Made by a program: the position numbers and the translations under genes
From: Chloroflexota bacterium
GTDB lineage: Bacteria > Chloroflexota > Anaerolineae > Anaerolineales > UBA11579
DNA length: 64,000 nucleotides
Direction of reading: 5' to 3'
Assembly (NCBI GenBank): GCA_013112575.1
Contig: JABFGG010000003.1
Coordinates: 152,898-216,897, forward strand
Part shown: in pieces, positions 44,763-60,116 of the stretch
How positions within the stretch are numbered: the stretch's first letter is position 1
How the letters are laid out: every line of letters starts with the position of its first letter
Notes under the pieces: model-generated
What the model was told of the DNA's origin: nothing
Database searches by the model: none
The model's input: only the letters and a program-made list of their open reading frames with translations

Positions 44763-44815
44763 TTGTAAAGGTCTTGACAGATACTTGATTAAATAGAACG
44801 TTTGTGCATAATTAA
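44763..44815 (+). promoter_or_regulatory. 53-bp promoter element, copy 1 (TTGACA ... TTGATT-16 nt-TGCATAAT)
   Basis: 49/53 identical to 59400-59452. TTGATT at 44785-44790, CATAAT at 44807-44812, preceded by TG. Confidence 0.55.
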
Positions 44816-44887: not shown

Positions 44888-46531
44888 TTGAAGATAAGTG
44901 ATGTGAAAGCAGCACAAGTGAATCAACCAACGCGTAAGCTGGATAAATGGGTCGAAGATGGGCCAAAGGCGTTTGGGCGATTTTATGCGGAAGTATTTGG
45001 GCGGGAATGCCCGCGGCACGCCATGGAAGAATGGATCAAACCATTGTATGCGGCGCGAGGCCTAGATAAAGGCTTGGTGATCGAGGCTTTCCGTGGGTCA
45101 AGCAAAACGACTACGGTGACGATCGGGTGGCTGGCATTTCAGATTGGGCTGAAGCCGCATAAGAGCTATATGCTGGTGCAGGTAGGGGATGAACTGGCAA
45201 AAGATACGGTGCAGGAAATTGCTGACCTGATCGAGTACAACCCCGGATGGCAAAGGGTTTTCCCGGATGTGGCAGCTGACCGTAAGGCAGGGTGGAGTAC
45301 GCGAGGGTATGAGGTCAAGCGGGTGGACATGGACTATGAGGATTGGCGACAATTGTGTGCCAATGAGAAAGGCAAAGACCCGAGCCTGGTGGGAATGGGA
45401 TACAAGTCGCGGGCGATCATTGGGAGACACCCAACAGGTGCGCTGATATTAGATGACATACATGATGAAAATAATACGCGGTCTGGGCGAGAATTAGCGA
45501 CGGTGATCAAGATCGTGCAAGGAACGATCTTGCCGACGGTGACGCCGGATACCTGGAAGGTGGCAGTCGGAACGCCGTGGCGAAGGGATGACGTGCTGGC
45601 ATATTTAAAGGGGACAGGGGAGTTCGAGAGTGTAAAGACGCCAGCGATAAGAGTCAAGGAAGCAGGAAGCAGGGATAAGGAATTAGGGTTGGGGGAGGGG
45701 AGCAAGGGGGCTATGGGAGCAGGGGAGCAAGGGGATAAAAGGAAAACGAAGAAAAAATGCAAAGAGTCTAAAGTCCCACAAAATTTTGAGGAGAGTATCT
45801 GGAAGGCAACGTGGTTTGAAGGCTTGCCATTAAAGGACGTGGAGAAGCAGCGGCGAGTGCTGGGTGAGGTGGAGTTCGCGCGAATGTATTTGCTGGACCT
45901 TGAGGCGGCAAGTGGTGTGCATTTGCGGTCAGGGTGGTTGCAGCGTTACCCGTACGAGGAAATCGGGAAGGATTGGCCGGTGGTGATGGGGGTGGACTAT
46001 GCTTCGGTGGCCGACCAGTTGAAGGCGAGTACGCGGGATTATTTCGCGGTGGCGATTGGGCGAGGTATCCCCGGTGGCGGTGTTGTATTGGTGGATGGCT
46101 TCCGGGGGAAAGTGTCGCAAGGCCAGGCTCAGCAGAAGCTGCAATCCATCGCCAGACAATATCCCACCTTGCAAACGATCGGGGTGGAGGCGGTGGGGAA
46201 GGGGGAGGAATTCTTCCATTTGATGCTGCGGACAAGCTGGCTGCCAGTGACACCGATGCAACCGGGGAGGAAAAGCAAGGGGTATCGCTTTGAGAAGGTG
46301 TTAGCGCCGATGTTCGAGTATGGGCGGGTAAAGGTTAGCTCGGCAGAGACACCATTCTTGCAGGCGTTTCGTGATGAGTGGGTGCGTTGGCCGTATGGTG
46401 AGCATGACGATACTTTGGATGCGGTGTATTGGATGTTGCAAGTGGCGAAACACCATATGGTGGTTGAAGAGGAGGGGGAGAGCCAGAAGCGAGAAAAAGT
46501 GAACCCGTTTGCGGAATTGGGGAGGGGATAA
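44888..46531 (+). CDS. terL: phage terminase large subunit
   Basis: Walker A-like FRGSSKTT, Walker B LILDDIHDE, nuclease motifs MGVDYA and HDDTLDAVYWML. TTG start is uncertain. Carries a low-complexity insert (see findings). Confidence 0.85.
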   Translation: MKISDVKAAQVNQPTRKLDKWVEDGPKAFGRFYAEVFGRECPRHAMEEWIKPLYAARGLDKGLVIEAFRGSSKTTTVTIGWLAFQIGLKPHKSYMLVQVGDELAKDTVQEIADLIEYNPGWQRVFPDVAADRKAGWSTRGYEVKRVDMDYEDWRQLCANEKGKDPSLVGMGYKSRAIIGRHPTGALILDDIHDENNTRSGRELATVIKIVQGTILPTVTPDTWKVAVGTPWRRDDVLAYLKGTGEFESVKTPAIRVKEAGSRDKELGLGEGSKGAMGAGEQGDKRKTKKKCKESKVPQNFEESIWKATWFEGLPLKDVEKQRRVLGEVEFARMYLLDLEAASGVHLRSGWLQRYPYEEIGKDWPVVMGVDYASVADQLKASTRDYFAVAIGRGIPGGGVVLVDGFRGKVSQGQAQQKLQSIARQYPTLQTIGVEAVGKGEEFFHLMLRTSWLPVTPMQPGRKSKGYRFEKVLAPMFEYGRVKVSSAETPFLQAFRDEWVRWPYGEHDDTLDAVYWMLQVAKHHMVVEEEGESQKREKVNPFAELGRG

Positions 46532-46638: not shown

Positions 46639-48672
46639 ATGGGTAAAAAACAGGATCTGAGCAAAAGACGAATGGAAGCTTTGAGGCGCGGGGACCTCGA
46701 AACGGCGGATAAGCTCTTACGGGAGTTGATGCCGCGGCAGCGCAGAGATCAGGAGGCGCATGATCTGGAAAAAGAGGCATTACGGGCAAGACGCAGTAAA
46801 AAGCTGCGGGACAGGAACACCTATGATGTGGTGGCCGGGGACAGCTTCTTTTCGGTGGCAAGTGAGGTGTTAGGGGATGCGCGGCTGGCGGGGGCATTAC
46901 TTGAGGCGAACCCGAATGTTTACGTGCTGCGTCCGGGGATGGTGTTGGACCTGCCGGAATTGGACACTGAAGCAGAAGAACCACCGTTGTTCTCGGAGGA
47001 GGCTTACCGCGATGCGCTGATCTCACAGGAGTTGGTGGATGCGATTGGAGGCGATCCGAGTGGGGCGCGTGTGGGGGATGAAGACGTGGAGATAGAAGCG
47101 GATGAGGAATTTGTGCAGGACAGCCAGGAGGCCTTGGCGGGTCTGGGAATGGAGGAAGAAGCCCTGGCAGAAGCGGTGGCAGACCTGCTGATAAACCTGG
47201 GGTATACCGATGTGCCAGTACCCAAAGTGATGGAGAAGCCTGCCGCACAAGTAGAAGAGGATATTGACGAAGAAACGTTTGAGGGGCCAGCCCTTGAGAC
47301 CGAAGAGTACCTAGGGGCAGATGTAAGTTTGGAGGATGGGCCGCAACAAGATGAAACCCCACCGTCACCAGATGACGAAGGAAAGCGCGGAACTAGGAAG
47401 GTAGAAGGTAAGGGGACGTCAGAACCGGAACCGGCGGTTGTTCCGACAGAGGAAGTAGAGCCGACCGAAGTTGTCAACGAGCCCCTGCCCAGCTATGAGG
47501 AACTGGTGATCGCTGAGGAGACGAACTGGCCGCAATGGGAGAATGCCTTAGAGAACTCAGGCATCGAATTGAGGGATAATGAGGGTGAACTGAATCTTGA
47601 GGAGATCAGCACTTTTATTGCGGAAGATATTGAAGTAAATAAAGAACGTTATGCCCAGGAATTGGGAATGACAGTTGATGAGTTGGCAGAGGTTTCAAAA
47701 GAAAGAGTAGAGATTTGGCTGGAGGCAGCTGAATTGCATGGCCAGTTAGATGTTTTTAACACCTCATTATTACTGAAGCAGAATGATCAAGATATTTTTG
47801 GAGTCAATATTGATGTCATGGTTGATGGGGCCCCGATGGGTTTGGATGCTTACATCGAAACTCAGAACGATGCAGATATTGAATCGACTCGGCTGAATTT
47901 TTCAATAGCGTTGGTAAATATGGGTTTTGCTTTGTCAGGTGTTTCTCCTGATTATGATGATCCGGGAGAGGTATTTCGGGATGTATTCGGTGATGTAACA
48001 ATCAAATTTGACAGCAAATATAGTCAGGGTTGGGGGTGCAAGACTAACTCGAGTCGAGAGGTCGTGTGTGGGAGTGGTGGGTTGAGTTACAGTATTCCGC
48101 AATATGGATATTTTGGTTTATATCCCGAAGTAATCATCCATGAATTGGGCCATGTTTTGCATAGTAGAATAGCGAGAAACTTGGCAATAGGTTTAGGACG
48201 AACCCCGAATAACGAAGATAAAGAACTGGAACAGATCTACAAGGACAAATTAAGCTTATTTGACCCCTATATTCGTCTCGGTAGCACGAGTTTATACTTA
48301 GACGAAGATTACACAGATGGTGAAGGAATTGTTTTCGCTGGGCCAGGAATTGCTGAGCGGAGTGAGTTAGGATGGCAGTATACGGATAGGGATGGTTACC
48401 TGTCAGATTTACCTTATCAGATACATGGTTATGAATTATTTCCGCTACCTAAAACTCCTGAAGAACGAGAAGATTATGATGATCCTAATAGCCCGAATGA
48501 AAGATTTGCAGATATGTTTTTAAACTGGGTACTAGACTCATTTGACTACACTGACTCTGCTCAAGGAGCTGGCCAAGCCATGTATGATTGGGTTGATGAA
48601 AATGCTGCTGATTTTGTGTATTTTGCATCTCACACGTATTCAGAAGAATGGGACAATAGAATTGAGAATTGA
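46639..48672 (+). CDS. LysM-domain protein with acidic linker and C-terminal HExxH metallopeptidase-like domain
   Basis: Basic N-terminus. LysM (YDVVAGDSFFSVASEVLGD...LRPGMVLDLP). A long Asp/Glu-rich middle. VIIHELGHVLH near the C-terminus. No signal peptide. Confidence 0.7.
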   Translation: MGKKQDLSKRRMEALRRGDLETADKLLRELMPRQRRDQEAHDLEKEALRARRSKKLRDRNTYDVVAGDSFFSVASEVLGDARLAGALLEANPNVYVLRPGMVLDLPELDTEAEEPPLFSEEAYRDALISQELVDAIGGDPSGARVGDEDVEIEADEEFVQDSQEALAGLGMEEEALAEAVADLLINLGYTDVPVPKVMEKPAAQVEEDIDEETFEGPALETEEYLGADVSLEDGPQQDETPPSPDDEGKRGTRKVEGKGTSEPEPAVVPTEEVEPTEVVNEPLPSYEELVIAEETNWPQWENALENSGIELRDNEGELNLEEISTFIAEDIEVNKERYAQELGMTVDELAEVSKERVEIWLEAAELHGQLDVFNTSLLLKQNDQDIFGVNIDVMVDGAPMGLDAYIETQNDADIESTRLNFSIALVNMGFALSGVSPDYDDPGEVFRDVFGDVTIKFDSKYSQGWGCKTNSSREVVCGSGGLSYSIPQYGYFGLYPEVIIHELGHVLHSRIARNLAIGLGRTPNNEDKELEQIYKDKLSLFDPYIRLGSTSLYLDEDYTDGEGIVFAGPGIAERSELGWQYTDRDGYLSDLPYQIHGYELFPLPKTPEEREDYDDPNSPNERFADMFLNWVLDSFDYTDSAQGAGQAMYDWVDENAADFVYFASHTYSEEWDNRIEN

Positions 48673-48694
48673 ATTGGTAAGTTTTGGATAAAAC

Positions 48695-49672
48695 ATGAGA
48701 AATGACAAGGGTCTTTTTCAACGAATTGGAGGAACAGTTATCGGAAGTTTAGTAAAGGTGCTGTTGCTTATCTTTTTTTTACTAGTCGTAATCTCCTTCG
48801 TGAGTTGTTCACCGACGAATAGATACGATCCAAGATTGCTCATAGAGAATGGTCTCCAAATGAGTTGGTCACCTTCTGGGAAGGAAATTGCATATGTTGC
48901 AGATCGTGAGGGCTCTGACACTCATGATCTCTATCTATATGATACTCAGACAGGAAATATTAGCCAGGTTACTGAATTAGATGGCCCTTATGCACCTGCG
49001 TTTCCTAGTTGGTCCCCAAATGGTCAAAAGCTTTCATTTGTCCTTTATTCTGAGGGTTTAGATATTGTCTTATTAGATTTTGGTAAGTTTGACGGAACCC
49101 CACTAGACAGCATTGAATTAAGAGAATTAATTGCAAAAGGGGTCCCACCGACTCAAACTGGAGAGATATATGCCTGGAACGACGACCCCCATTGGTCACC
49201 AGACGGTACAAAGATAGCGTTCATTTCCTGGCTGGAGGAGAATGTTGAAATCTACATAATGGATGAGGAAGGAGACAATGCAATCAAAATTGGAGAACAG
49301 GTTGGAAAAAATTATGAGCCTACTTGGTCACCGGATGGAAATTCGCTTGCTTTTGTATCAGACCGAGACGGAAACCTCGAAATCTATACAGTGAACCTCA
49401 TTAGTTTGGAAGTATCAAGAATAACTAATAGTTCAGAAATAGACCAGTCTCCTGATTGGTCTCCTGATGGGAAATGGCTCGTATTCGAATCGATGAGAAC
49501 AGGGAACTGGGATCTGTTTGCGTTTCACCTAGAGAGTGGGGAGTTGGTGCAACTGACTTTTGATGAGGCGGATGACTATACTGCTGATTGGTCGCCAGAT
49601 GGAAGCTTGATCGGGTTTACGTCTTTGCGATTAGGTGAAGCGGCTTTGTATGTGATCGATGCGCCGGAGTAG
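48695..49672 (+). CDS. TolB-like PD40 beta-propeller lipoprotein 1
   Basis: Lipobox FVSC. Repeated WSPDG/WSPNG blades. Confidence 0.8.
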   Translation: MRNDKGLFQRIGGTVIGSLVKVLLLIFFLLVVISFVSCSPTNRYDPRLLIENGLQMSWSPSGKEIAYVADREGSDTHDLYLYDTQTGNISQVTELDGPYAPAFPSWSPNGQKLSFVLYSEGLDIVLLDFGKFDGTPLDSIELRELIAKGVPPTQTGEIYAWNDDPHWSPDGTKIAFISWLEENVEIYIMDEEGDNAIKIGEQVGKNYEPTWSPDGNSLAFVSDRDGNLEIYTVNLISLEVSRITNSSEIDQSPDWSPDGKWLVFESMRTGNWDLFAFHLESGELVQLTFDEADDYTADWSPDGSLIGFTSLRLGEAALYVIDAPE

Positions 49673-49712
49673 TGTTTAGCAAAGTCGGATTTTCGTCAAA
49701 GGGGTTCTTTAG

Positions 49713-50666
49713 ATGAAATCAATATGGATAGTATTCTTTTGCTTGCTTGTTGTAAGTGGAACCGGATGTGGTTCTAACAACAGAATTCAAGACCGCATTC
49801 GGCTGACAAATAACCTTAGCATAGATATTTTGCCAGACTGGGCACCGGATGGAACACAAATCGCATTTGTACGTAGAGAGGAAGATAATAACAATGCTCA
49901 CCAAGTTTTTGCAGTTCATGTATTGAATCAGATCGAAGAGGAACTCCTCAATAATGAAACCAGTTACAGAATAGATGGACTTGGCTGGTTGCCTGACGGA
50001 GAAGAGATTGCTTTTTTAATATTTGGTGGAGACGTTGGCCCTGCAGTCGGCATACTATCTTATATTCAGGGGGAAATACCACCTCCGAGCATTTTAAAGA
50101 TGGAGGTATTACGCGGTTTGGGCGACCGAGCATTTGTATGGAACTTTGAATGGTCATCAAGTGGGGAAGAAATTGCAATCATACGAAACTATGATGATAG
50201 CATTGCTCCTGGCTTATACACCGTGAAAAGAGATAATACTGAGTTGCAACAAATAACGCAGGGTTACGGAGCCTGGGGGCCAAGTTGGTCTCCAGATGGG
50301 AATAGGATTGTGTTCGAGCATATTGGGGAAATCGATCCGAATGATACTGTGTTTATGTCTGATGAAAATGGAGAAATATACACCATCAAAGTAGATGGAA
50401 CAGAACTTTTCCAAGTGACTAATCACATCGCGAATGACTCTGAGCCTGAATGGTCACCAGCAGGAGATTGGATAGCATTTGTTTCTGAGAGAGATGGAAA
50501 CAAGGAGTTGTATGTAATTCGACCTGATGGTAGGGAACTCACACGACTAACTGAGGAAGAGGCAGACGACTATTCGCCAACCTGGTCGCCAGATGGAACA
50601 CAGATCGCGTTTGTGTCTGAACGGGATGGGAACCCTGAGCTATATATTATGGATGTGCCGGAGTAG
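49713..50666 (+). CDS. TolB-like PD40 beta-propeller lipoprotein 2
   Basis: Lipobox SGTGC. Repeated WSPDG/WAPDG blades. Confidence 0.8.
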   Translation: MKSIWIVFFCLLVVSGTGCGSNNRIQDRIRLTNNLSIDILPDWAPDGTQIAFVRREEDNNNAHQVFAVHVLNQIEEELLNNETSYRIDGLGWLPDGEEIAFLIFGGDVGPAVGILSYIQGEIPPPSILKMEVLRGLGDRAFVWNFEWSSSGEEIAIIRNYDDSIAPGLYTVKRDNTELQQITQGYGAWGPSWSPDGNRIVFEHIGEIDPNDTVFMSDENGEIYTIKVDGTELFQVTNHIANDSEPEWSPAGDWIAFVSERDGNKELYVIRPDGRELTRLTEEEADDYSPTWSPDGTQIAFVSERDGNPELYIMDVPE

Positions 50667-50856
50667 AAGATAGAAGGAGCTAGGGGGCAGAAGAAACAAA
50701 AGGTCCAGAAGGGCCAAAGGAGTTAAAAGCGTAGAGGTTTGACAATAGGGGCGTAGGGAAAACAAGAAGCAAGACTTGCTCAAGTAATTTTGAATAGCGG
50801 GGGGGGTGTGAGGGGAAATTGAACATTGTCCATTTTTCTATTTAAAGGAGTTAGCG

Positions 50857-52761
50857 GTGAAGAGTTTGAATTATTACCAGGGTTTGGCGAATGAGATGGT
50901 GCAGGCTGACCGGGGGCGAGATGCGATGCTGAGGGCGATGGATGATATGTGGCATAACCGGTGGAGTTTGCCAAAAGGGATAAGCAATTTGCGGTGGGTG
51001 CACAAGGTGGTGAGCACGGACCCGCACGATGCACTACGAGCAGGTACGCGGGTACTGAGTAGTGTGGAACCGCGCATCAAGCTGCAGCCGCTGGCACCCA
51101 ATGAGGCGACACGCGAAAAAACGGATGGCATTGAACGAGCACTGGGATGGCATTTCCGAAATGCGAGCAGGCGGCGGCGGGCGAATGTGCTGCGAGACGT
51201 GGTATTGAGCACATTGTTATATGATGAGGTGGTGGCGCAGGTAGTGTATCTACCGGAGCAGATCGAGGCGATGAAGGCGTTCAAGGGAGACACGCGACGC
51301 CTGGAGGCAGCACGACGATATGGGCCATTTTCGATCCTAGTGAGGAACCCGCGGCAGGTGCACGTGCGGTATTCGGACTGGATGCCGGAAAGTGTGTTGT
51401 TAAAGAAGGTGATGCGGGTGGGGGAGGTGGTCGATTTTTGGGGGACAAAGGCCAGGGGCTTAAAAAATAAGCTGAAGGAGCAGGGGAGTAAGGGAGTGGG
51501 GGGGAAGAAGGATTGGGAATATTGCACGGTGTATGACTACATGGACCTGGATGTGCGGGTGGTGTGGGCTGTGCCGCATGCCGGGGGAAGCATGGTGAGC
51601 GATCCTTTAGGGGATGCGGAGGGCACAGGCGGGGTGCAAATCTTGCGAGAGAAACATGATCTGGGTTTCTTGCCGTGGGTGGCTAAGGTGGGGGGCACGA
51701 CACTGGAAGATGAGGCGGCTTTCCAGCGGATGCCGTTGTTGGCTTCGATCTACCAGAGCGGACAGTGGGATACGCAAAACATCGTGGATACCTTGATGGC
51801 GAGCGAAGTGATCGCATATGCGGCTGCGCCTCGCTTGAAGGTGTCCGGGCCGACGGACCAGGTGGAAGTGGATTATGGCGAGCCGGGACGGCCAGCGTAC
51901 GTGCCACCGGGGCATGAATTGAGTGCGATGACGCCTCCGGGGCTGGACCAGAGTCTGGCGGTGCTGGCAGAGCGGATCGGAAGCCGGATGGCAAAAAGCA
52001 CAGTGCCGCGAGTGTTGCAGAGCGGGGATTTCCCATCGGGGACGGCGTTTTCGACGCTGAACCTGGCGACGCAGAGCGGGATCAAGTCATTGGCGCCGTA
52101 TAAAGAACTGGCTGAAGAGGCGCTGGTGGATGTGTTCACGCAGATGTTGTATTGGGTGAAATATGCCAATGAGCCTGTGCTGGCATTTGGAAAGAAACGC
52201 GATGATCCAGGCAGCCAGTACACGATCTACCCGAAGGATATTGACCTGGAGAGTGTTTACATGGAGGTTGAATTGACGGCGGATGTGCCGACAGACCGGA
52301 TGGCGCGCATCAACGCAGCCTCGATGGCGGTGCGGGACCTGAATTACTCAAAATCGCGGGCACTGGAACAGGTGGGCGAATCCGACCCGGGCTTCATCAT
52401 GGAGCAAGCGCGTGAGGAAACGCTGGATGAAGTTGACCTGGAAATTGAAAAACAACGTAAGCTGGCATTGGGGAAGCTGGAGATCGAGAAGATGGTGAAA
52501 GAGATACAGGAAGGGGAAGAGGAGGCGAAAGCGCCAGAGGAAGCAGAAGTATCAGAGGGGCCAGTGGCAGTAGCCGGGCAGCCCCAAAATATCCAAGAGC
52601 TATTAAAGCAGCCGAAGTTCCGGGAGCGTGTGCATGAGGTCATGGGGCAGGGGTTTAACCCGGCGGCGGGTGGCAGCCCTCCAGTGCAGGCAGACCCTGA
52701 ACTCAGCAATCGTAAAAAGCCAGCAACTACAAAGACAGGTGAAGAGGTCGCAGAGGTATAG
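50857..52761 (+). CDS. phage portal protein (candidate)
   Basis: 634 aa, lies between the terminase and capsid genes, acidic C-terminal tail, GTG start after AGGAG. The call rests on size and synteny, not on a recognised motif. Confidence 0.6.
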   Translation: MKSLNYYQGLANEMVQADRGRDAMLRAMDDMWHNRWSLPKGISNLRWVHKVVSTDPHDALRAGTRVLSSVEPRIKLQPLAPNEATREKTDGIERALGWHFRNASRRRRANVLRDVVLSTLLYDEVVAQVVYLPEQIEAMKAFKGDTRRLEAARRYGPFSILVRNPRQVHVRYSDWMPESVLLKKVMRVGEVVDFWGTKARGLKNKLKEQGSKGVGGKKDWEYCTVYDYMDLDVRVVWAVPHAGGSMVSDPLGDAEGTGGVQILREKHDLGFLPWVAKVGGTTLEDEAAFQRMPLLASIYQSGQWDTQNIVDTLMASEVIAYAAAPRLKVSGPTDQVEVDYGEPGRPAYVPPGHELSAMTPPGLDQSLAVLAERIGSRMAKSTVPRVLQSGDFPSGTAFSTLNLATQSGIKSLAPYKELAEEALVDVFTQMLYWVKYANEPVLAFGKKRDDPGSQYTIYPKDIDLESVYMEVELTADVPTDRMARINAASMAVRDLNYSKSRALEQVGESDPGFIMEQAREETLDEVDLEIEKQRKLALGKLEIEKMVKEIQEGEEEAKAPEEAEVSEGPVAVAGQPQNIQELLKQPKFRERVHEVMGQGFNPAAGGSPPVQADPELSNRKKPATTKTGEEVAEV

Positions 52762-52763
52762 TC

Positions 52764-54389
52764 ATGGGTGATAAGAATCGAGAGATCGCAGAGTATTACA
52801 AGAAACGAAGAAGAGGGGAACGGGATGATGAAATGCTGGACCGGATCGTGGGGGGAGGGAGGCGACAGCGAAGGGCCAAGGCTGAGGAGAGGGAGGCCAA
52901 ACGGGAGTATCGAAAAAAGCGTAGCCTGTTACAAAATGCGTACACGGTGCAGCTGGGCGATAGCTGGTTCAGCATTGCGGGGAGCGAAATGGGAGACCAG
53001 CGCTATGCAGGAGACCTGGCGAGGGCAAACCCGGGGTTTGACGTATTGAAGCCGGGGACGGTAATCATGCTGCCGCCTGCGGGGGGAGAGGAGACACCTA
53101 TCCTGACATACGAAGATTATGAGATGTTGGAGGGTATTCAGGAAAAGGTGGAAGAGGCACAAGAGCCGCCGGTGACAGCAGCAAACAGCCCAGTCTATGG
53201 TGATCCTGCAGGAATAGAAGCGGAACACGACATGATACAAGCCTATTTGGATAGGCAAGAAGCGGATGAGACTCCTGTAGATGAAGAGGCGAATGGACTG
53301 GAGGAGGAATTCAATGTGGCGGATTATGAGGCGGAGGCGCAAGCGATAGCACAGATGTTGTTGGAGATGCAAGCTTTGCGTGAGCAGGAGGAAGAGGGGT
53401 CAATAAAGGTGGCGGCCCTTGCGCAGGATGTTGTTTTGCAGGAAGAAACGCAAGAGCAAAAAGAAGCAAATGAATTGTTGGATACCTGGTTTCAGACCCA
53501 AGTAGCAGATATGAAAATCCTGGGGCAGGATAATTACCGTGCAATTCATAATGAGTACAAGGCATTACAAAATGGAATTAGCCAGGGTAGCGTTACGCGT
53601 AATGAAATGTTTAGAAGGGTATATGGAACGGAATATGTGCCGACCCCCACACCAACGCCTACAGAGGGATTGCCCCCACCTATTGTAGAAGTACGGCCAT
53701 TAGAAACTGATACACCTGAGCCTATTCTCACACCAGAGCCTATTCGAATACCTACTGCAGAACCTACAGCAGCAAATTGGGTAGAGGTCTTGGAGTCGTA
53801 TGCTCCAATGAATGGGGATGGATTTTTTGTTTCAGGAAATCGTCATGGGACAGAAATACTTAAAGGATTGCATGTGGGTGTTGACATTGCCGCAGATGAC
53901 CGTATTGTTGAGGCCAATGTGGCGGGGAAAGTGTACTTCTTCCAGACCCTCAAGGGTGCTGGAGGAATAATCGAAACAAGAGCCTTTGACCCTGCATTGG
54001 AATACCCTGAAAATGATGATAGTTATGAGGACTTTGGGAATTATGTAGTGCTCGTAAGTGAATTCAACGGTGAGACTTACTATCAAGTCTTTGCTCATTT
54101 AGAGTCATTCAGTCATGATTTTCAGAATGGTGATGAAGTGCCCGCTGGAACTTTATTAGGGGAAATGGGGAAAACAGGCGCTACTGAAGAGTATCATGTC
54201 CATTGGGAGATTCGAACAGAGGACGGAGTCAATATAGATGAAAATGGGGTGATTCGATTTGATATTTTTGAACGGGTTTTAGCGGACGGCACATATCCTA
54301 CCTATTATGCGCAATCAGAGGAAGAGTTAGAGCAGTTTACAATTAACCCATATGATTTCACTAATCTGCTGAATTCTATTGACAATTAA
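52764..54389 (+). CDS. LysM-domain protein with acidic linker and C-terminal M23 peptidase domain
   Basis: Start lies 2 nt after the portal stop. Basic N-terminus. LysM (YTVQLGDSWFSIAGSEMGD...LKPGTVIMLPP). M23 motifs HVGVDIAA and YHVHWEIR. Confidence 0.75.
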   Translation: MGDKNREIAEYYKKRRRGERDDEMLDRIVGGGRRQRRAKAEEREAKREYRKKRSLLQNAYTVQLGDSWFSIAGSEMGDQRYAGDLARANPGFDVLKPGTVIMLPPAGGEETPILTYEDYEMLEGIQEKVEEAQEPPVTAANSPVYGDPAGIEAEHDMIQAYLDRQEADETPVDEEANGLEEEFNVADYEAEAQAIAQMLLEMQALREQEEEGSIKVAALAQDVVLQEETQEQKEANELLDTWFQTQVADMKILGQDNYRAIHNEYKALQNGISQGSVTRNEMFRRVYGTEYVPTPTPTPTEGLPPPIVEVRPLETDTPEPILTPEPIRIPTAEPTAANWVEVLESYAPMNGDGFFVSGNRHGTEILKGLHVGVDIAADDRIVEANVAGKVYFFQTLKGAGGIIETRAFDPALEYPENDDSYEDFGNYVVLVSEFNGETYYQVFAHLESFSHDFQNGDEVPAGTLLGEMGKTGATEEYHVHWEIRTEDGVNIDENGVIRFDIFERVLADGTYPTYYAQSEEELEQFTINPYDFTNLLNSIDN

Positions 54390-54485
54390 TAAATGTGTGG
54401 TTAAAAACTCGAGCAAGTGAGGAAATCTTGGTAACATGAAAAGGACGTTCGTTCCTGAAAGGCGAAAAAGCGGTCGAGGTGTTTC

Positions 54486-55136
54486 ATGAATAATATAATC
54501 AAACGTAGAAAAAAGACTGTGGTAATTGTGAGTTTCGCAATACTCATATTGACCGGGTGTCAAAGTGGAATACTCACTGTCCCTACCCAAACTCAGGAGG
54601 TGAAGCCAATATTTGCCCCTGAGCCAACTCTTGAAGGCTCGTGGGCAGGTTTGCCATTCGGCGAGAACTGGGAGCTCAGAGTCGTTGGGGCGGATGAGGA
54701 GCGGGAAAACCCCTGGTTGTATGCTTACTTTGAAGGGCAGGAAGTCCTGGCGAATAGAGATTATGAGGGCTGCGAGTTGACCTATTGGTTTGGTTCTGGG
54801 GAAGGAATAGATGAGTTTGGGGAATTCCCTGAATTCTTTTCTTATATCTCTTTTGAGCAAAAGATAGGAGGAAATGATTTTGGTGTTATTCTCCATCTTT
54901 TAGAAGGAGAACTCGATTATATTAAATATGTCTTTGACTCAAAGATATACGGGGCATCCAACGTATATGAAAATGGATATGTTGGTACTTTGCGTCTTCG
55001 ATTGATCGATACCGAGATCGATCCATGCATCCAAGAAACGAAGTGGCTATTAGCGGAGATAGACCCAAGTGGGATGTATGCGATGCGAGATCCATTCATG
55101 GAATGGAATAATGTGAGGCGATTTGGGGATGAATAA
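54486..55136 (+). CDS. lipoprotein of unknown function, paralog A
   Basis: Lipobox ILTGC. About 90 percent DNA identity to 58398-58952. Confidence 0.6.
   Translation: MNNIIKRRKKTVVIVSFAILILTGCQSGILTVPTQTQEVKPIFAPEPTLEGSWAGLPFGENWELRVVGADEERENPWLYAYFEGQEVLANRDYEGCELTYWFGSGEGIDEFGEFPEFFSYISFEQKIGGNDFGVILHLLEGELDYIKYVFDSKIYGASNVYENGYVGTLRLRLIDTEIDPCIQETKWLLAEIDPSGMYAMRDPFMEWNNVRRFGDE
54618..55136 (+). repeat. direct repeat copy A (about 0.52 kb)
   Basis: Aligns with 58398-58952 at a 3780-bp offset. For example, CCTGAGCCAACTCTTGAAGGCTCGTGGGCAGGTTTGCCA is identical in both. Confidence 0.8.
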
Positions 55137-55175
55137 GGGGGGATTGATGAATAAGCAAGGGATTTTGTAGTTGCG

Positions 55176-56126
55176 ATGAGAACATTGTGGATTCCTGTGA
55201 TTTATTTGCTTTTTGTTGTGGGGTGTAAAGGCTTTTGGGAAGAGCCGCGGCTAGAAGGTCACATAGCGTTCATGATGGAAGTGGAAGGGAATCATGATAT
55301 TTACATCATGGAACCCAATGGGGACAATGTCAGAAGATTAACGGACCACGCTGCTTATGATATGGAACCGGCCCTCTCCCCTGATGGGCAAAAAGTCGTT
55401 TTCGTTTCAGATCGCGATAAGAATTGGGATATCTACATGGTGGATGTGGACGGTAGTAATGTAACCCAGCTTACATTTTCCTCTATGGCGAATGAGAGCT
55501 TTGAAGAGTTTTCAAAAGCACTTGATTGGGGAACACACTGGTCTCCGGATGGGAGATGGATCGCATTCCAGTCGCAGCGAGACGGCAATGCTGAGATATA
55601 CGTAATGCGCTCGGATGGGAGCAATCAAAAAAGATTGACCTTTCACCCAGCGGATGATGCTCTGCCGACATGGTCGCCAGACGGTACACAAATAGGTTTC
55701 ATGTCTGCGAGGCCAAGTCCAGTAGACATCCCTGTGCGGAACTTTGATACCTATCTGTTGGACACAGAAAGTGGTGTAGTCAGTAGAGTAACTGAATATG
55801 TTGGCCTGGATGGGCCTCCTGTATGGTCACCAGATGGAGATCTGATAGCCATCGCCTCGGAACGAGAAGGGGGACAAAGAATATTCATTGTAGATGTCAG
55901 TAGTGGTGAATGGCGATTATTGACGGAGGCGTATGATGAGGGAAATGAAGAGTTTAATGGAGAGCTAGATGGAGAGATACGTGAGGGTTCTGAAAGTTGG
56001 TCACCAGATGGTAATTGGCTGGTGTTAACCTACGGAGCCAAGATCTGTACGATACATAAAGAGGGACATAGTTTGAATTGTATTGAAGGAATAAGTCGTG
56101 CAGCACAGCCTGATTGGGGACCGTGA
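55176..56126 (+). CDS. TolB-like PD40 beta-propeller lipoprotein 3
   Basis: Lipobox VVGC. Repeated SPDG blades. Confidence 0.8.
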   Translation: MRTLWIPVIYLLFVVGCKGFWEEPRLEGHIAFMMEVEGNHDIYIMEPNGDNVRRLTDHAAYDMEPALSPDGQKVVFVSDRDKNWDIYMVDVDGSNVTQLTFSSMANESFEEFSKALDWGTHWSPDGRWIAFQSQRDGNAEIYVMRSDGSNQKRLTFHPADDALPTWSPDGTQIGFMSARPSPVDIPVRNFDTYLLDTESGVVSRVTEYVGLDGPPVWSPDGDLIAIASEREGGQRIFIVDVSSGEWRLLTEAYDEGNEEFNGELDGEIREGSESWSPDGNWLVLTYGAKICTIHKEGHSLNCIEGISRAAQPDWGP

Positions 56127-56219
56127 TTCTTGGGGAAGGAATAGCTAAAGAGACCTTCAAAACTCTTGCAAAATAAGTTTAGATGGCTCTTGAAGCGCGA
56201 AGTGAAAGCAGAGTGATTG

Positions 56220-57149
56220 ATGAGTAATGGGATTTTGATCTATCTAGCGAAACTTTGGTTTTCATTAGTTTTATCTGGTTTGTTTGTGGCTAGCTGTACT
56301 TTCCTTGAATCGACAACAAAACCGGAGGGTCAATTACTATTTGTTGGAGAATCTGAAGATGGGTTAGATTCTGAAGCTTTTGTTTACAATTTAGAAAAAG
56401 AAATCACAAACCAATTGACAGATAATGAAATCACTGATTATTATGCAAAATTTTCGGCTGATGGCAAGCAAATTGCGGTGGCTGCGGGGTTACCAATGCC
56501 GGGAATAGTATTAGTAGATATAGAAACTCAAGACCTTTATCAATTGACTAATGAGGAAACTTTAGTTGGTTATTTATCCTGGTCATCTGATGGGGAGTGG
56601 ATTGCCTTTTCCAAAGATATGGATTCAGGTTCTGTCAATTCAGATATTTATAGAGTAAATATTGACAATAGTACAGTCTCTAAATTCTTTGGCACGGACG
56701 GCAATGACATTCGTGTATTATGGTCACCTGATGGAAACCAAGTAGCATTCAGTTCAAATTTTGAGGCTATTGAATTTAACGACTATGATGTATATGTTTA
56801 CGAGATTGATGATGCTAGTATTGTTAGATTGACATTTGAAGATTCGGATGATGCACCGCTATCCTGGTCTCCAGATGGGAAATACTTAATTGTGTCTTCT
56901 GGAACTGGACTAGATAATCAGGATAAGCGGTTTTTCTTGTTAGAGGTTGATACAGGCAACAAAGAACCTCTAATCGAAGATAAAAATTATTCAACAGGAA
57001 AAAATGAGAATTCTGCAATTTGGTCACCTGATGGGAATTGGATCGCTATAGATGTGGATGGCAGGATTTGTATTATGGATCTGAAGGGTGAACTCTACGA
57101 TTGCTATACGGAAGGATATAAATATATATTGACTGATTGGGGGCCGTGA
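56220..57149 (+). CDS. TolB-like PD40 beta-propeller lipoprotein 4
   Basis: Lipobox FVASC. WSSDG/WSPDG blades. ATG at 56220 (the track uses TTG at 56217). Confidence 0.75.
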   Translation: MSNGILIYLAKLWFSLVLSGLFVASCTFLESTTKPEGQLLFVGESEDGLDSEAFVYNLEKEITNQLTDNEITDYYAKFSADGKQIAVAAGLPMPGIVLVDIETQDLYQLTNEETLVGYLSWSSDGEWIAFSKDMDSGSVNSDIYRVNIDNSTVSKFFGTDGNDIRVLWSPDGNQVAFSSNFEAIEFNDYDVYVYEIDDASIVRLTFEDSDDAPLSWSPDGKYLIVSSGTGLDNQDKRFFLLEVDTGNKEPLIEDKNYSTGKNENSAIWSPDGNWIAIDVDGRICIMDLKGELYDCYTEGYKYILTDWGP

Positions 57150-57182
57150 AATTTGAGTGTCGGGAATGATGAAGTAATAAAA

Positions 57183-58091
57183 ATGGTGAGGCAAATATAT
57201 CTTCTAATACTAGTTTCGTTGATGATGATTGGATGCAGTCGAATTGAAGAGCAGCAAATTGCTTTTCATACGGGTACGGTAATGATCGACGCGCAAATCT
57301 ACGTAGTGGATCTGAATGGACAAAACCTAACACAGCTAACTGACAGCCGCGGCTCCAATTCGGCTCCGACCTGGTCGCCTGATGGCAGCCAGATTGCTTT
57401 TGTGTCCACACGGGACACGAATTTTGAAATCTATATCATGAACGCAGATGGGAGTGGACAATACAATTTCACAGAGAGCCGGGCCCACGATAGGAACCCA
57501 ACGTGGTCTCCTGATGGGAAATGGATCCTCTTTGAATCACGAGTCAATGACACAGAATATCGCGATCTCTATCGTAAGAATGTGGAGACTGGTGAATTAG
57601 TCCAACTGACGGACACTCCAGAACTGGCTGAGTTCCACCCAGCATGGTCAACAGATGGAAGTCAAATCGCATTCTCAGTCCTTAATAAGGACGCTGCTTT
57701 GGATATCTACATCATGGACAAAGATGGAGGTAACGTAGAGCGAATCACTGGGGAGATAAGAAACGTTGACTATCCGATATGGGGAAGATCTGGAGATAAA
57801 ATCTATTTTGTCACATTTGGGTGGTTTGAAGTAGGCAAGCGTGAGATTGTTGCATATGATCTGGAAACAGGTGAATTGAGCCAAATAAGTTTTGATGGTC
57901 AGCCCAAGGGGGAATTTGTGATTACGCCGGATGGTTCAAATATCCTGTTTGAATCCTCCGTGGAGATAGGTCAAAATGAGGATGGGATCAGATTAACGCG
58001 TGGAGCAATCTTTGTCATGAATATTGACGGGACAGGATTGGAATTGCTGCCTATTTATATCAGTGCCAGTGGTGTTGCGTGGAGGCCGTGA
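57183..58091 (+). CDS. TolB-like PD40 beta-propeller lipoprotein 5
   Basis: Lipobox MMIGC. WSPDG/WSTDG blades. The ATG at 57183 is preferred over the TTG at 57153. Confidence 0.75.
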   Translation: MVRQIYLLILVSLMMIGCSRIEEQQIAFHTGTVMIDAQIYVVDLNGQNLTQLTDSRGSNSAPTWSPDGSQIAFVSTRDTNFEIYIMNADGSGQYNFTESRAHDRNPTWSPDGKWILFESRVNDTEYRDLYRKNVETGELVQLTDTPELAEFHPAWSTDGSQIAFSVLNKDAALDIYIMDKDGGNVERITGEIRNVDYPIWGRSGDKIYFVTFGWFEVGKREIVAYDLETGELSQISFDGQPKGEFVITPDGSNILFESSVEIGQNEDGIRLTRGAIFVMNIDGTGLELLPIYISASGVAWRP

Positions 58092-58140
58092 ATAATCTCT
58101 CTGGTTTTTGAAAAACTCGTTAAATTGGTTTAGCTATGAT

Positions 58141-58176
58141 AATTGAGCCTGCATTTACTGATGTAGGCTCAATTTT
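58141..58176 (+). terminator. terminator-like hairpin after PD40 gene 5
   Basis: 10-bp stem AATTGAGCCT/AGGCTCAATT, 14-nt loop, followed by TTAT. A TGgTAAAAT extended -10 follows at 58185-58193. Confidence 0.45.
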
Positions 58177-58244
58177 ATGCCAAATGGTAAAATCTGCCGC
58201 CAAGGTTTGAGAAGAAGAGGGATGGATATTTGTAGGAGCCCTTG

Positions 58245-58952
58245 ATGCTGACTAATTGTTTAAGCGTATTTCGTTCGTATTGCTTCCTTTTTAGCTGCTT
58301 GATATTTGTTGGTGCCTGTAGTTCTGTAGGGAATAGCGGAGAAGAGGGATTAGTTCCTGCTGCTATTCAAACTGAGGAAGCGAAGACAGTATTCGTCCCT
58401 GAGCCAACTCTTGAAGGCTCGTGGGCAGGTTTGCCATACGGTGAAAACTGGGAGCTCAGGGTTGTTGAAGAGGATGAGGAGCGGGTAGACCACGAGTTGT
58501 ATACTTACTTTGGGGAGCGGGCAGACCGCTGGTTGTATGCTTACTTTGAAGGGCAAGAAGTCCTTGTGAATAGAAATCATGATGGCTGCGAGTTGACCTA
58601 TTGGTTTGGTTCGGGGGAAAGAGGAGAAGAGTTTGGGGAAGGCCCTGAATTTCTTTCTACTATCTCTTTTGAGCAAAATTTAGGAGGGAATGATTTTGAT
58701 GTTATTCTCAATCTTGTGGCCGGAAAACTCGATTACATTAAATATATCTTTGACTCAAAGATATACGGAGCATCCAACGTATATGAAAATGGGTATCTTG
58801 GTACTTTGCGACTTCGATTGATCGATACCGAGATCAATCCATGCATCCAAGAAACGAAGTGGCTATTAGCGGAGATAGATCCGAGTGGGATGTATGCGAT
58901 GCGAGATCCATTCATGGAATGGAATAATGTGAGGCGATTTGGGGTTCCATAG
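58245..58952 (+). CDS. lipoprotein of unknown function, paralog B
   Basis: ATG after AGGAG. Lipobox FVGAC. Carries a 15-codon internal duplication relative to paralog A. Confidence 0.6.
   Translation: MLTNCLSVFRSYCFLFSCLIFVGACSSVGNSGEEGLVPAAIQTEEAKTVFVPEPTLEGSWAGLPYGENWELRVVEEDEERVDHELYTYFGERADRWLYAYFEGQEVLVNRNHDGCELTYWFGSGERGEEFGEGPEFLSTISFEQNLGGNDFDVILNLVAGKLDYIKYIFDSKIYGASNVYENGYLGTLRLRLIDTEINPCIQETKWLLAEIDPSGMYAMRDPFMEWNNVRRFGVP
58398..58952 (+). repeat. direct repeat copy B (about 0.55 kb)
   Basis: See copy A. Confidence 0.8.
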
Positions 58953-58962
58953 ATGGGTACAG

Positions 58963-59009: not shown

Positions 59010-59213
59010 TCAGCGGCGGCGGTTACGTTGGGAAACACGACGGCGGGCGCGGCGGATGGCTTTCTTCTTTTGAATGCGGCGCTCTTCGGATTTGGAGACG
59101 AACCAGCGTTTGCGGCGGATGTCACCGAGGACCCCGCTGCGGGTAACGGTCTTGCGGAAGCGGCTATAAAGCTGCTGCTGCGACTCGTTGGAGCGTAATT
59201 CTACTTTTGGCAC
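59010..59213 (-). CDS. rpsU: 30S ribosomal protein bS21
   Basis: VPKVELRSNESQQQLYSRFRKTVTRSGVLGDIRRKRWFVSKSEERRIQKKKAIRRARRR fits the S21 pattern. GTG at 59211-59213 lies 7 nt after AAAGGAGGTGA. Confidence 0.85.
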   Translation of the reverse strand: MPKVELRSNESQQQLYSRFRKTVTRSGVLGDIRRKRWFVSKSEERRIQKKKAIRRARRRVSQRNRRR

Positions 59214-59399
59214 TGGAGGTTCACCTCCTTTCATATAAAGCGTAATCGCTTTGTTTTTGGCCTATGAACTGACCGAGCGGGATTATACCTTGGGGAGGGG
59301 AAGTGTACAAGGGCGCGACAATGTGGGGGGAAGATGAAGGTTCGGACACGGACGAGGCATGCCTCGCCCCTACAAAATCTCCAACAATTCCGCGTAGGC

Positions 59400-59452
59400 T
59401 TGTAAAGGTCTTGACAAAGGCTTGATTAAATAGAACATTTGTGCATAATTAA
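59400..59452 (+). promoter_or_regulatory. 53-bp promoter element, copy 2
   Basis: TTGACA at 59411-59416, TTGATT at 59422-59427, CATAAT at 59444-59449. 4 mismatches to copy 1. Confidence 0.55.
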
Positions 59453-59510: not shown

Positions 59511-60116
59511 ATGACAGAAGCACTGGAGAGCGGCGCTAAACGCGAGGAAGCTGGTGAAAACAGCCAGGTTTCGACAGCACAGCGTGACGAGCAAACTTCA
59601 GGTGAAGTTGAACGGCCAAATTCCCCACTGGAAAAGCAGATCGAGGAGCACATTGCTTCGGAGGTGGAGCGACGGTTCCAGAGTGCAAAAGATAAACGGT
59701 GGGCGCAACTTGAGCGGCAGTATGGGGCTTTGAGTGAGTTACAAAAGGCAATGGACGGGCAGGATGAAATTCAAGCCACTGATGACAACTGGGTGATCGA
59801 TAAAGCCCAGGGGTTGTTAAAAATGGCGGGATTGGAAAACGATCCGGAAGTAAGCGCGTTGTTGAGAGAGAAGCCCTATGGTGCGGATAATGATGGCTAC
59901 GTGGCCCTATTGAGTGATCTGACCGAGGTGGTTTTGCGACGCAATAGTCGTGGGCCCACAAATGGGGCGGCGGTGGCCCAGCCAAGTGGTGGCCTGCCTG
60001 TGAATGACCTGAGAGAGGATTATGAGTTACGAAAACGCCAACTCGTTGCGGGGGATGTGAATGCGCTAATGGCTTTGAAACGAGAGTTCCGGGCGAAGGG
60101 TTTGGATATTTTTTAG
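59511..60116 (+). CDS. scaffolding-like protein (acidic, helical), immediately upstream of the capsid gene
   Basis: ATG at 59511 lies 6 nt after AAGGAG. The track start at 59439 lies inside the promoter. Charged helical composition and position support the call. Confidence 0.45.
   Translation: MTEALESGAKREEAGENSQVSTAQRDEQTSGEVERPNSPLEKQIEEHIASEVERRFQSAKDKRWAQLERQYGALSELQKAMDGQDEIQATDDNWVIDKAQGLLKMAGLENDPEVSALLREKPYGADNDGYVALLSDLTEVVLRRNSRGPTNGAAVAQPSGGLPVNDLREDYELRKRQLVAGDVNALMALKREFRAKGLDIF

Follow-up and report, generated by a model that had tools for sequence, protein, structure and literature searches.

The stretch of contig JABFGG010000003.1 analysed here, 64,000 nucleotides from a bacterium of the order Anaerolineales (Chloroflexota) and hereafter called the window, contains a cluster of phage head genes in which two blocks of low-GC DNA, at 47475-50826 and 53006-58962, break up the order large terminase (TerL), portal, scaffold/major capsid protein (MCP). 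The portal is separated from TerL by 4.3 kb and the scaffold from the portal by 6.7 kb, as measured, in agreement with the separations of about 4 kb and 6.7 kb given in an earlier prediction for this DNA (the original prediction). The genes downstream of 44.8 kb form a single co-oriented series on the plus strand that reaches the window's end, the bS21 gene on the minus strand excepted, and those for the LysM proteins and lipoproteins among them are tightly spaced, with gaps of 3-191 nt, behind one promoter-like element. The features are listed below, together with their similarity to L042, the corresponding locus of a related bacterium.

44763-44815, plus: promoter-like element, copy 1 (TTGATT-16-CATAAT), 5' of TerL
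44888-46531, plus: large terminase TerL (backbone); PHROG 38, E 2.6e-54; Pfam Terminase_6C; 84% protein identity to L042
46639-47474, plus: conserved N-terminal part of a 677-aa protein (backbone); basic helix, LysM and acidic linker; GC 0.54-0.57
47475-48672, plus: variable C-terminal domain of the 677-aa protein, start of cassette 1; HExxH motif; GC ~0.41; no homology in L042
48695-49672, plus: PD40 lipoprotein 1 (cassette 1); PD40 E 4e-42, DPPIV_N E 3e-18; lipobox FVSC, Cys38; GC at third codon positions (GC3) 0.38
49713-50666, plus: PD40 lipoprotein 2 (cassette 1); PD40 E 1e-38; lipobox GTGC, Cys19; GC3 0.38
50857-52761, plus: portal, 634 aa (backbone); AlphaFold/Foldseek portal fold; GC 0.571
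52764-53005, plus: conserved N-terminal LysM part of a 541-aa protein (backbone); 40% identity to the N-terminus of the 677-aa protein; nucleotide homology to L042 ends at 53005
53006-54389, plus: linker and M23 peptidase of the 541-aa protein, start of cassette 2; Peptidase_M23 E 3e-14, residues 422-490; GC down to 0.38-0.47; no homologue in L042
54486-55136, plus: small lipoprotein A, 216 aa (cassette 2); lipobox LTGC, Cys25; paralogue of 58242-58952
55176-56126, plus: PD40 lipoprotein 3 (cassette 2); PD40 E 1e-43; lipobox VVGC
56217-57149, plus: PD40 lipoprotein 4 (cassette 2); PD40 E 6e-19; lipobox VASC; GC 0.37, GC3 0.30
57153-58091, plus: PD40 lipoprotein 5 (cassette 2); PD40 E 5e-30; lipobox MIGC
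58242-58952, plus: small lipoprotein B, 236 aa, end of cassette 2; lipobox VGAC; 80-88% nucleotide identity to 54567-54994
59010-59234, minus: bS21 gene; NCBIfam TIGR00030, 38.3 bits against a cut-off of 28.95
59400-59452, plus: promoter-like element, copy 2, 5' of the scaffold
59511-60116, plus: putative scaffold (backbone), between portal and MCP in all relatives; 80% identity to L042, 38% to L009; 201 aa in the public gene call
60201-61331, plus: major capsid protein MCP, SU10-type (backbone); PHROG 1328, E 4.5e-52; Pfam SU10_MCP on record; 92-94% amino acid identity to L042
61509-64000, plus: start of the neck/tail genes, a 283-aa protein followed by an 864-aa protein that leaves the window

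When the base composition was analysed, the GC content was 0.428 and 0.439 in the two cassettes, compared with 0.545-0.569 in the backbone and 0.507 (standard deviation 0.040 per 500 bp) in the 44 kb of host DNA upstream, and GC3 was 0.30-0.46 in the cassettes compared with 0.62-0.67 in the backbone. Tetranucleotide usage correlated with that of the host DNA at r 0.49 for the cassettes, 0.81 for the backbone and 0.86-0.89 for host chunks of equal size. The discontinuity is present in all three analyses and supports the claim of the original prediction that the inserts are compositionally foreign; its hand counts for single lines of sequence (21/60, 18/60 and 37/60) were exact on recount. The drop in GC falls inside the open reading frame (ORF) 46639-48672, at ~47.5 kb, and inside the ORF 52764-54389, at ~53.0-53.3 kb, and not at gene borders. 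Each insert therefore also takes in a C-terminal enzyme domain of a LysM protein, so that the extent proposed earlier, lipoprotein genes in low-GC DNA, is right for those genes and too narrow for the unit, whose breakpoint lies inside the LysM genes. Neither Rfam families nor tRNAs were detected in the window. Of the two kilobases of lowest GC outside the cassettes, one lies in host DNA and contains a 325-aa ORF (7960-8937, minus strand) with a GC content of 0.42 and a Pro/Thr-rich N-terminus.

LysM carriers, lipoproteins and cassette replacement

The 677-aa and 541-aa proteins have a common N-terminal module of ~115 residues, 40% identical, in which a basic helical stretch is combined with a LysM domain (residues 58-110 of the 677-aa protein in an exhaustive HMMER search). 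After acidic linkers the two proteins end in unlike domains; in the 541-aa protein this is an M23 peptidase domain according to Pfam, while the C-terminus of the 677-aa protein contains an HExxH motif (IIHELGH) and later a NERFAD motif, both read directly from the sequence. A shared N-terminal module joined to unrelated C-terminal domains within one family is a mark of polymorphic toxin systems. No signal peptide was found in either protein, nor any trafficking domain of the type V, VI or VII secretion systems (T5SS, T6SS, T7SS), Rhs or MuF kinds, only LysM and the basic helix. A database search with the full 677-aa protein returned only the protein itself and its L042 homologue, and the N-terminus of the 541-aa protein (133 aa) gave no match in a word-indexed protein database. 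The entry P0125, considered as an independent example with an M23 domain, proved to be the window protein with a later start. The two LysM proteins were also considered as ordinary endolysins accompanied by spanins, which was rejected on the grounds that a separate GH25 endolysin is present in the terminal lysis cassette and that propellers of 300 aa are not spanins.

Downstream of these C-terminal domains, cassette 1 contains two PD40 propellers, and cassette 2 three, flanked by a small lipoprotein on each side. All five propeller proteins score above the threshold of Pfam PD40 (PF07676), with 68-147 bits against a cut-off of 20.9 (E 6e-19 to 1e-43), and matches to DPPIV_N and Tricorn were also found. 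In a motif-level test each of the seven lipoproteins showed a hydrophobic h-region and a lipobox, [LVIFM..][ASTVIG][GAST]C, with the cysteine at position 17-38, the least canonical being the GTGC of PD40 lipoprotein 2. This agrees with the five propellers, two paralogous small proteins and seven lipoboxes counted in the original prediction and supports its view that the cassette genes would encode exported lipoproteins, not virion parts. The small lipoproteins A and B are paralogues with 80-88% nucleotide identity and bracket the three-gene PD40 array. Lipoprotein A has no family match in Pfam, PHROG, PADLOC or NCBIfam; PADLOC gave only sub-threshold matches, to PDC-M58B, and a Pfam search at E <= 10 returned only noise for both small lipoproteins, the scaffold, the portal and five variable C-terminal domains. 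PD40 lipoprotein 4 has the lowest GC content of the region, and PD40 lipoprotein 3 has its best relatives among PD40 lipoproteins that adjoin solitary portals in the loci L043-L045.

The propellers had been called TolB-like, and this holds for the fold. As TolB orthologues they were rejected, the score of 181.8 bits falling below the equivalog cut-off of TIGR02800 (343.15), with a match limited to the propeller part (profile positions 196-353 of 418) that leaves the TolA-binding N-terminal domain uncovered. No tol-pal genes were found near the PD40 genes, and the PD40 proteins are lipoproteins.

A comparison with L042, where the cluster occupies the same chromosomal site after an SdrD_B/DUF3048 gene, revealed replacement of both blocks in an otherwise conserved setting. 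The backbone is 76-83% identical at the nucleotide level (protein identities TerL 84%, MCP 92-94%, bS21 92%), and this homology stops at 47474, resumes at 50826, stops again at 53005 and resumes at 58962, limits that coincide with the low-GC blocks. Within the blocks the only nucleotide homology is a 222-nt match to the tail of one PD40 gene. The L042 homologue of the 677-aa protein, 639 aa long, is 83% identical over the N-terminal module, up to "...VPTEEVEPTEVV", and continues with an unrelated C-terminus of 340 aa; it is followed by two PD40 lipoproteins with 36-45% identity to those of the window and mosaic C-terminal ends. At the protein level the second block, ~4 kb in L042, resembles neither the M23 domain nor the small lipoproteins nor PD40 lipoproteins 3 to 5, and it is not readable gene by gene because L042 is a long-read contig of low coverage (5.5x) with frameshifts. 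In L042 the C-terminal domain and the downstream lipoproteins are thus replaced jointly, with breakpoints inside the LysM genes (~47475 and ~53005), as for cassettes of polymorphic toxins. The best explanation offered by these alignments is that related genomes swap the cassettes through recombination that takes place inside the conserved N-terminal part or directly behind it.

The same pattern was found at other loci. In L013, from another Anaerolineales metagenome-assembled genome, four genes are 86-100% identical at the nucleotide level over their first ~200 nt and ~100 nt upstream and then diverge completely. Our own reading of the L013 C-termini, in neither of which Pfam finds anything, is that one is cysteine-peptidase-like (NLCGQ...SHW) and one lytic-transglycosylase-like (GIAQI). 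The three full-length carriers are followed by a 156-aa membrane protein, a 379-aa PD40 lipoprotein and a 246-aa lipoprotein with PepSY, a known peptidase-inhibitor domain; the fourth carrier gene is a fragment of 120 aa. The ~100-nt conserved region 5' of each carrier (7088-7207, 11940-12059, 15012-15131 and 17796-17915 in L013) contains a TATAAT-like box and an AGGAGGA ribosome-binding site, and the L013 cassettes look individually transcribed.

Elsewhere the exhaustive HMMER search found the whole N-terminal module joined to Amidase_2 (P0128), Phage_lysozyme (P0226), Ntox44 (P0242) or nothing recognisable (P0139, P0167 and P0211). In L089 the end of a portal gene is followed by a LysM-Ntox44 gene and a 202-aa membrane protein (GC 0.42), in L091 a LysM-lysozyme gene precedes a 419-aa lipoprotein (GC 0.45), and in L049 the order is rhomboid, portal, LysM protein and PD40 lipoprotein (GC 0.41). 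In L090 a 211-aa HEAT-repeat protein stands between the LysM-amidase and a 429-aa lipoprotein. All four loci thereby have a lower-GC gene for a lipoprotein or membrane protein downstream of the carrier, in three of them directly next to it. Counting every case with visible downstream sequence, the neighbouring gene encodes a lipoprotein or membrane protein in 9 of 10, usually at lower GC, the exception being L090.

The element and its phage-like relatives

The cluster extends over ~24 kb, from TerL to a GH25 endolysin, and combines a podovirus-type portal with an SU10-type capsid in an Anaerolineales chromosome. To the left of TerL it borders directly on host genes (an ABC transporter and GntR/FCD), while beyond the window, on contig L002, about eight more genes lead to the GH25 endolysin, followed by two small ORFs, a hairpin terminator and the host genes PadR and PolX. 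The terminator consists of a strong hairpin and a T-run, AAAGTGCCCCAAATCTGGGGCACTTTCTTTT, at 10175-10205 of L002 (~69.09-69.12 kb in window numbering). Every backbone ORF of the window is intact. Among capsids of cultured phages the nearest to the window MCP is below 33% identity. In TerL a Lys/Gly-rich low-complexity insertion (residues ~246-312, window 45620-45830) lies between the ATPase and nuclease parts and is skipped in the alignments with L029 and L033.

The 634-aa protein gave no sequence match in Pfam, PHROG, NCBIfam or the PDB, including a PDB profile search. An AlphaFold model built from an alignment of 28 homologues (pLDDT 72.6, pTM 0.62) was compared with known structures using Foldseek, and its best matches were the portals of the podophages Pan3, N4, SU10, KHP30 and T7 (E 1e-12 to 1e-9). 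Of 73 PDB chains at E <= 0.001, the top 50 are all portal, portal-vertex or tail-complex structures of phages or phage satellites. On this basis the protein is identified as the portal.

The portal family has 12 phage-like contigs (24-53% identity) with a fixed gene order, in which TerL and portal come first, a LysM protein (330-400 aa) and a giant protein (1700-2140 aa) follow, and scaffold and MCP come last. The LysM gene lies directly after the portal in the phage relatives L035, L037, L039, L053, L062 and L070, and since it is present there it is ancestral at this position, not inserted; in the five phage relatives whose LysM sequences were read, the protein has a Gly-rich tail and ends in ...INWRIG. 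Together the LysM and giant proteins fill the 7-8 kb between portal and scaffold, which makes a long portal-scaffold interval, judged from these gene orders, a trait of this phage family. TerL and portal, on the other hand, lie at most ~320 bp apart in all 12 contigs and abut or overlap in 11, and no PD40 genes were found in these contigs. The expectation in the original prediction that the head genes are normally contiguous therefore stands for TerL and portal, whose separation is atypical, and falls for portal and scaffold. Nor is the latter interval made up of a cassette alone, as it had been described, since it also contains the bS21 gene (59010-59234, minus strand) and the ancestral LysM gene. 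Three features set the window apart: the 4.3-kb insert between TerL and portal, the loss of the giant protein, of which tblastn found no remnant in the cluster, and a LysM protein whose C-terminus has given way to enzyme domains accompanied by lipoproteins.

Other genes were found at the junction of TerL and portal. A conserved membrane protein of ~245 aa is encoded there on the opposite, minus strand in L019 (8316-9956), L026 (2122-2850) and L056 (1963-2706), and L048 has a 367-aa gene at the same place; these show the junction to be a recurrent cargo site. In L007 (4148-9809, minus strand) the gap measures 6.4 kb and contains four genes on the minus strand. Three of them (780, 487 and 223 aa) differ in length and have a conserved N-terminus in common, ...AYQ.A..RIE.AA..GAT.L.L.... 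These may be another variable family with a conserved N-terminus at the same junction.

No integrase, repressor or replication gene was found in the cluster, no homologue of the small gene that precedes TerL in the relatives (the small terminase, TerS), and no att-like flanking direct repeats of >=13 nt. Given these absences and the occurrence of the portal family in conserved host synteny, the element does not resemble an ordinary prophage, and the prophage setting assumed earlier is not supported. Head, tail and lysis genes are present without genes for integration, replication or lysogeny and with host genes on both sides, an arrangement known from gene transfer agents (GTAs).

The two promoter-like elements form a 53-nt direct repeat with 92% identity between the copies, and a promoter scan finds a site in both. 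The element is kept 5' of TerL and of the scaffold in L042 (4026-4058 and 16630-16662), and this duplication with conservation at both sites suggests two co-regulated operons, parted by the divergent bS21 gene. The repeats were considered as att sites and rejected, as they lie 5' of two operon starts, match the promoter consensus and are both kept in L042. A GAAC-N4-GTGC stretch within the spacer has a weak resemblance to a Cheo/LexA-type box, from which no claim is drawn. The bS21 gene, divergent from the scaffold, occupies the same position in L009 (12325-12555), L027 (6573-6758) and L042 (16313-16540) and adjoins the portal in L046 (2706-2933). Its position is conserved and the phage relatives lack it, so that a cellular gene is embedded in the head module across several species.

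The window portal has 281 database homologues at 46-70% identity, on contigs of up to 4.4 Mb, and the named ones come nearly all from Anaerolineales/Chloroflexi. In at least 10 genomes (L016, L017, L020, L028, L031, L043-L045, L049, L051, L052 and L083) a solitary intact portal stands in the same host neighbourhood; L018 is also among the loci with a solitary intact portal in host synteny. In the loci of 21 kb the portal starts near position 10001. A rhomboid gene lies upstream in nearly all, preceded by bipA where annotated (L043-L045 and L083), and an acetyltransferase and an ABC transporter lie downstream in eight genomes (L016, L017, L020, L028, L031 and L043-L045). Several of these genomes have an intact TerL 6-9 kb upstream on the other strand, and L045 has a capsid gene 9.6 kb downstream of the portal, past the transporter. 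The ratio of nonsynonymous to synonymous substitution rates (dN/dS) of the portal was 0.07-0.17 in the five closer pairs, four of which compare solitary copies from host synteny, and 0.15-0.22 in more distant pairs. As expected of a GTA, the portal, on which vertical inheritance and purifying selection were evaluated, thus shows both, and the window and L042 also share their chromosomal site. In L043-L045 a divergent PD40 lipoprotein gene of host-like GC lies directly beside the portal; comparing L043 with L045 gives an amino acid identity of 54% for the PD40 proteins and a nonsynonymous divergence (pN) of 0.075 for the portals, so that the PD40 protein evolves far faster. The dispersed set of head genes suggests domestication and not decay, and the comparison as a whole points to an element that has probably been domesticated and may be GTA-like.

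In the loci with both measurements, the portal GC is ~6-11 points above that of its genome (0.72 against 0.64 for L012 10001-11722; 0.57 against 0.51 in the window). The portal thus has not ameliorated even where it appears anciently resident, and neighbouring genes for cargo or lipoproteins often lie 10-15 points below.

Interpretation and rival explanations

On balance we lean towards reading the two blocks as effector/immunity-like cassettes of a polymorphic family carried in a phage-derived cluster of head genes. There would be two carrier proteins, one encoded after TerL and one after the portal, each with a conserved N-terminus and a swappable cell-wall-hydrolase C-terminus, metallopeptidase-like with HExxH in the first and an M23 peptidase in the second, and the C-terminal domain would travel with the directly downstream lipoprotein genes as a single low-GC cassette. 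In the mechanism that we infer, the carriers, having no signal peptides, would reach other cells on or in a phage-like particle produced by the cluster, or through lysis by the cluster's own lysis genes. The conserved position after the portal points to particle-borne delivery; alternatively, the carriers could be released by the lysis genes and act in a bacteriolysin-like manner, from outside, on a monoderm wall. LysM would dock on peptidoglycan, which the C-terminal domain would cut, and the lipoproteins, tethered to the outer face of the cytoplasmic membrane, may bind and neutralise the cognate hydrolase. The result would be self or kin immunity for the carrier lineage, equivalent to exclusion of particles of the same type. 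The superinfection-exclusion role put forward in the original prediction is compatible with this evidence, while its framing in terms of lysogeny is weak, there being no integrase, repressor or replication genes.

Several observations speak against this reading. PD40 partners accompany at least three different types of C-terminal domain, which puts their specificity in doubt, and five PD40 genes for two enzymes are more than a one-to-one pairing needs. PD40 lipoproteins also occur beside solitary portals with no LysM effector nearby (L043-L045), where they could serve the element itself, and in L090 the carrier is followed first by a HEAT-repeat protein that has no signal peptide, which means that carrier and partner need not be adjacent. 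The link between lipoprotein and enzyme is drawn from gene context, and cassette replacement is seen in one close relative, L042, a frameshifted contig of low coverage. The C-terminal domain of the 677-aa protein has no relatives in Pfam, the PDB or the databases searched, and its AlphaFold model, made without an alignment, is unusable (pLDDT 38.8). In the survey of polymorphic toxins by Zhang et al. (2012, PMC3482391), furthermore, lipoprotein immunity was exceptional and beta-propellers were not yet seen among the immunity proteins. In favour of the reading, there is a structural precedent for an inhibitor of the propeller type: Tsi1, which confers immunity to the peptidoglycan peptidase Tse1, has a partial beta-propeller fold like that of DPP-IV (PMC3391265), and the PD40 proteins of the window match DPPIV_N.

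An alternative, which we consider unlikely, is that the lipoprotein genes are ordinary prophage morons, independent genes for lysogenic conversion or superinfection exclusion (through receptor masking like Llp or Cor) that settled at tolerant junctions of an otherwise normal temperate phage, with no tie to the LysM-peptidase genes. Low-GC DNA, seven exported lipoproteins out of seven, PD40 genes beside portals without any LysM effector and insertions of unrelated cargo at gene junctions elsewhere (L007 and L048; the membrane proteins of L019, L026 and L056) would all be expected of morons. The compositional and homology breakpoints, however, lie inside the LysM genes and not at gene junctions, enzyme domain and lipoproteins are replaced together in L042, and loci with seven further C-terminal domains repeat the order of an effector and, after it, a lipoprotein or membrane protein; the missing integrase, repressor and replication genes tell against morons as well. 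It is less probable still that the genes form an envelope-remodelling operon, in which PD40 lipoproteins position or activate the LysM-peptidases for particle release, particle uptake or turnover of the host wall. PD40 domains gate S9/DPP-IV peptidases and are common partners of peptidases, consistent with the DPPIV_N and Tricorn matches, the co-oriented genes are tightly spaced behind one promoter-like element, and a PD40 lipoprotein has been kept beside the portal over long stretches of evolution. Partners that both diverge quickly and are replaced outright are nevertheless typical of conflict systems and not of housekeeping functions, the PepSY inhibitor domain occupies the same position in L013, and the effectors lack signal peptides whereas the lipoproteins are exported, so that the two would not meet inside an intact producer cell.

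Lowest among these alternatives we place a decaying prophage remnant, a functionless arrangement of structural relics scattered among ordinary host lipoprotein genes. The absence of integrase, replication module, TerS and giant internal protein would suit a remnant, as would the head genes dispersed among host genes in many Anaerolineales genomes and the frameshifted or truncated TerL, MCP or portal in L009, L012, L030 and L033. Against decay stand the intact backbone ORFs of the window, the low dN/dS of the portal both in the closer pairs and at greater distance, the duplicated promoter-like element conserved in two species and the closure of the cluster by a lysis cassette and a terminator, and the composition of the cassettes is not that of ordinary host genes (r 0.49 against 0.86-0.89). 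The reading as effector/immunity-like cassettes can also be carried further, to an old domesticated GTA-like viriform, derived from a podovirus and resident in Anaerolineales, whose terminase, portal and capsid genes stay under purifying selection, often scattered through the host genome, and that is armed with polymorphic LysM-anchored hydrolases and uses cognate PD40 lipoproteins, which would determine the cells immune or closed to the particles, as a self/non-self code for particle-mediated killing or gene transfer; we regard this as speculative.

If the preferred reading of the blocks as effector/immunity-like cassettes is true, the logic of polymorphic toxins and immunity gains a new carrier, a LysM N-terminus encoded beside the portal, and a new host phylum, the Chloroflexi, together with a new class of immunity proteins, lipid-anchored PD40 beta-propellers. 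It would give a testable role to the PD40 lipoproteins, which are abundant in Chloroflexi and have no assigned function. The cluster would also be a candidate for a domesticated phage-particle system in a phylum with none described in the literature searched, and such a particle system could influence gene flow or antagonism in habitats rich in Anaerolineales, namely anaerobic digesters, sediments and mats. A wider lead, perhaps more important, is the set of capsid, portal and terminase genes that comparative evidence indicates to be conserved and dispersed across Anaerolineales.

Comparison with known systems

With GTAs (viriforms of the RcGTA type) the cluster has in common that it holds structural and lysis genes only, without integration or replication genes, that the genes are conserved under purifying selection across a bacterial order, and that many genomes have their head genes scattered through host synteny. 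It differs in being podovirus-like, where RcGTA is siphovirus-like, and in being known from genes alone; no report of a GTA in Chloroflexi was found in the literature searched. Phage T4 offers a parallel to the proposed exclusion in Sp (spackle), a phage-encoded envelope protein that stops a newly arriving particle of its own kind from using its wall-degrading enzyme. The proteins are unrelated to those described here, however, where enzyme and putative inhibitor are swapped together as cassettes.

The pair Tse1/Tsi1 of T6SS (PMC3391265) resembles the proposed system in that a cell-wall peptidase is neutralised outside the cytoplasm by a protein encoded next to it, as would be the case here, and in the propeller fold of Tsi1. 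In contrast, the genes here belong to a phage-derived cluster without a T6SS, and the PD40 proteins are ~300 aa long, lipid-anchored and present in several copies. The polymorphic toxins surveyed by Zhang et al. (2012, PMC3482391) likewise have a conserved N-terminus and highly variable C-terminal domains with breakpoints at their junction, low-GC cassettes of a C-terminal domain and an immunity gene, and truncated or orphan modules, whose counterparts here are the 120-aa carrier fragment of L013 and PD40 genes that lack an effector; Ntox44 is moreover found in one of the relatives studied here. Unlike those toxins, the carriers here contain no recognised trafficking domain (T5SS, T6SS, T7SS or Rhs).

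By analogy, the closest described system is that of the MuF polymorphic toxins, which sit in prophage packaging modules (Jamet et al. 2017, PMC5576092), and the original prediction, which knew of no described phage module with this architecture, is incomplete in not taking account of this analogous one. They differ from the carriers in several respects: the N-terminus here is a basic helix with LysM and gave no Phage_Mu_F match in Pfam scans of both proteins, the targets would lie in the cell wall (M23, HExxH, amidase and lysozyme domains) while those of MuF toxins are mostly cytoplasmic, the partners are predicted exported lipoproteins, often in PD40 arrays, and the host belongs to the Chloroflexi and not the Firmicutes, in an element that looks domesticated and not like a temperate phage. 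Common to both are a multi-domain protein encoded in the packaging or head module beside terminase and portal, the position after the portal being kept in the phage relatives, a conserved phage-associated N-terminus with a variable C-terminal domain, a downstream gene (a small one in MuF) proposed as the immunity gene, and a proposed role in particle delivery or bacterial competition.

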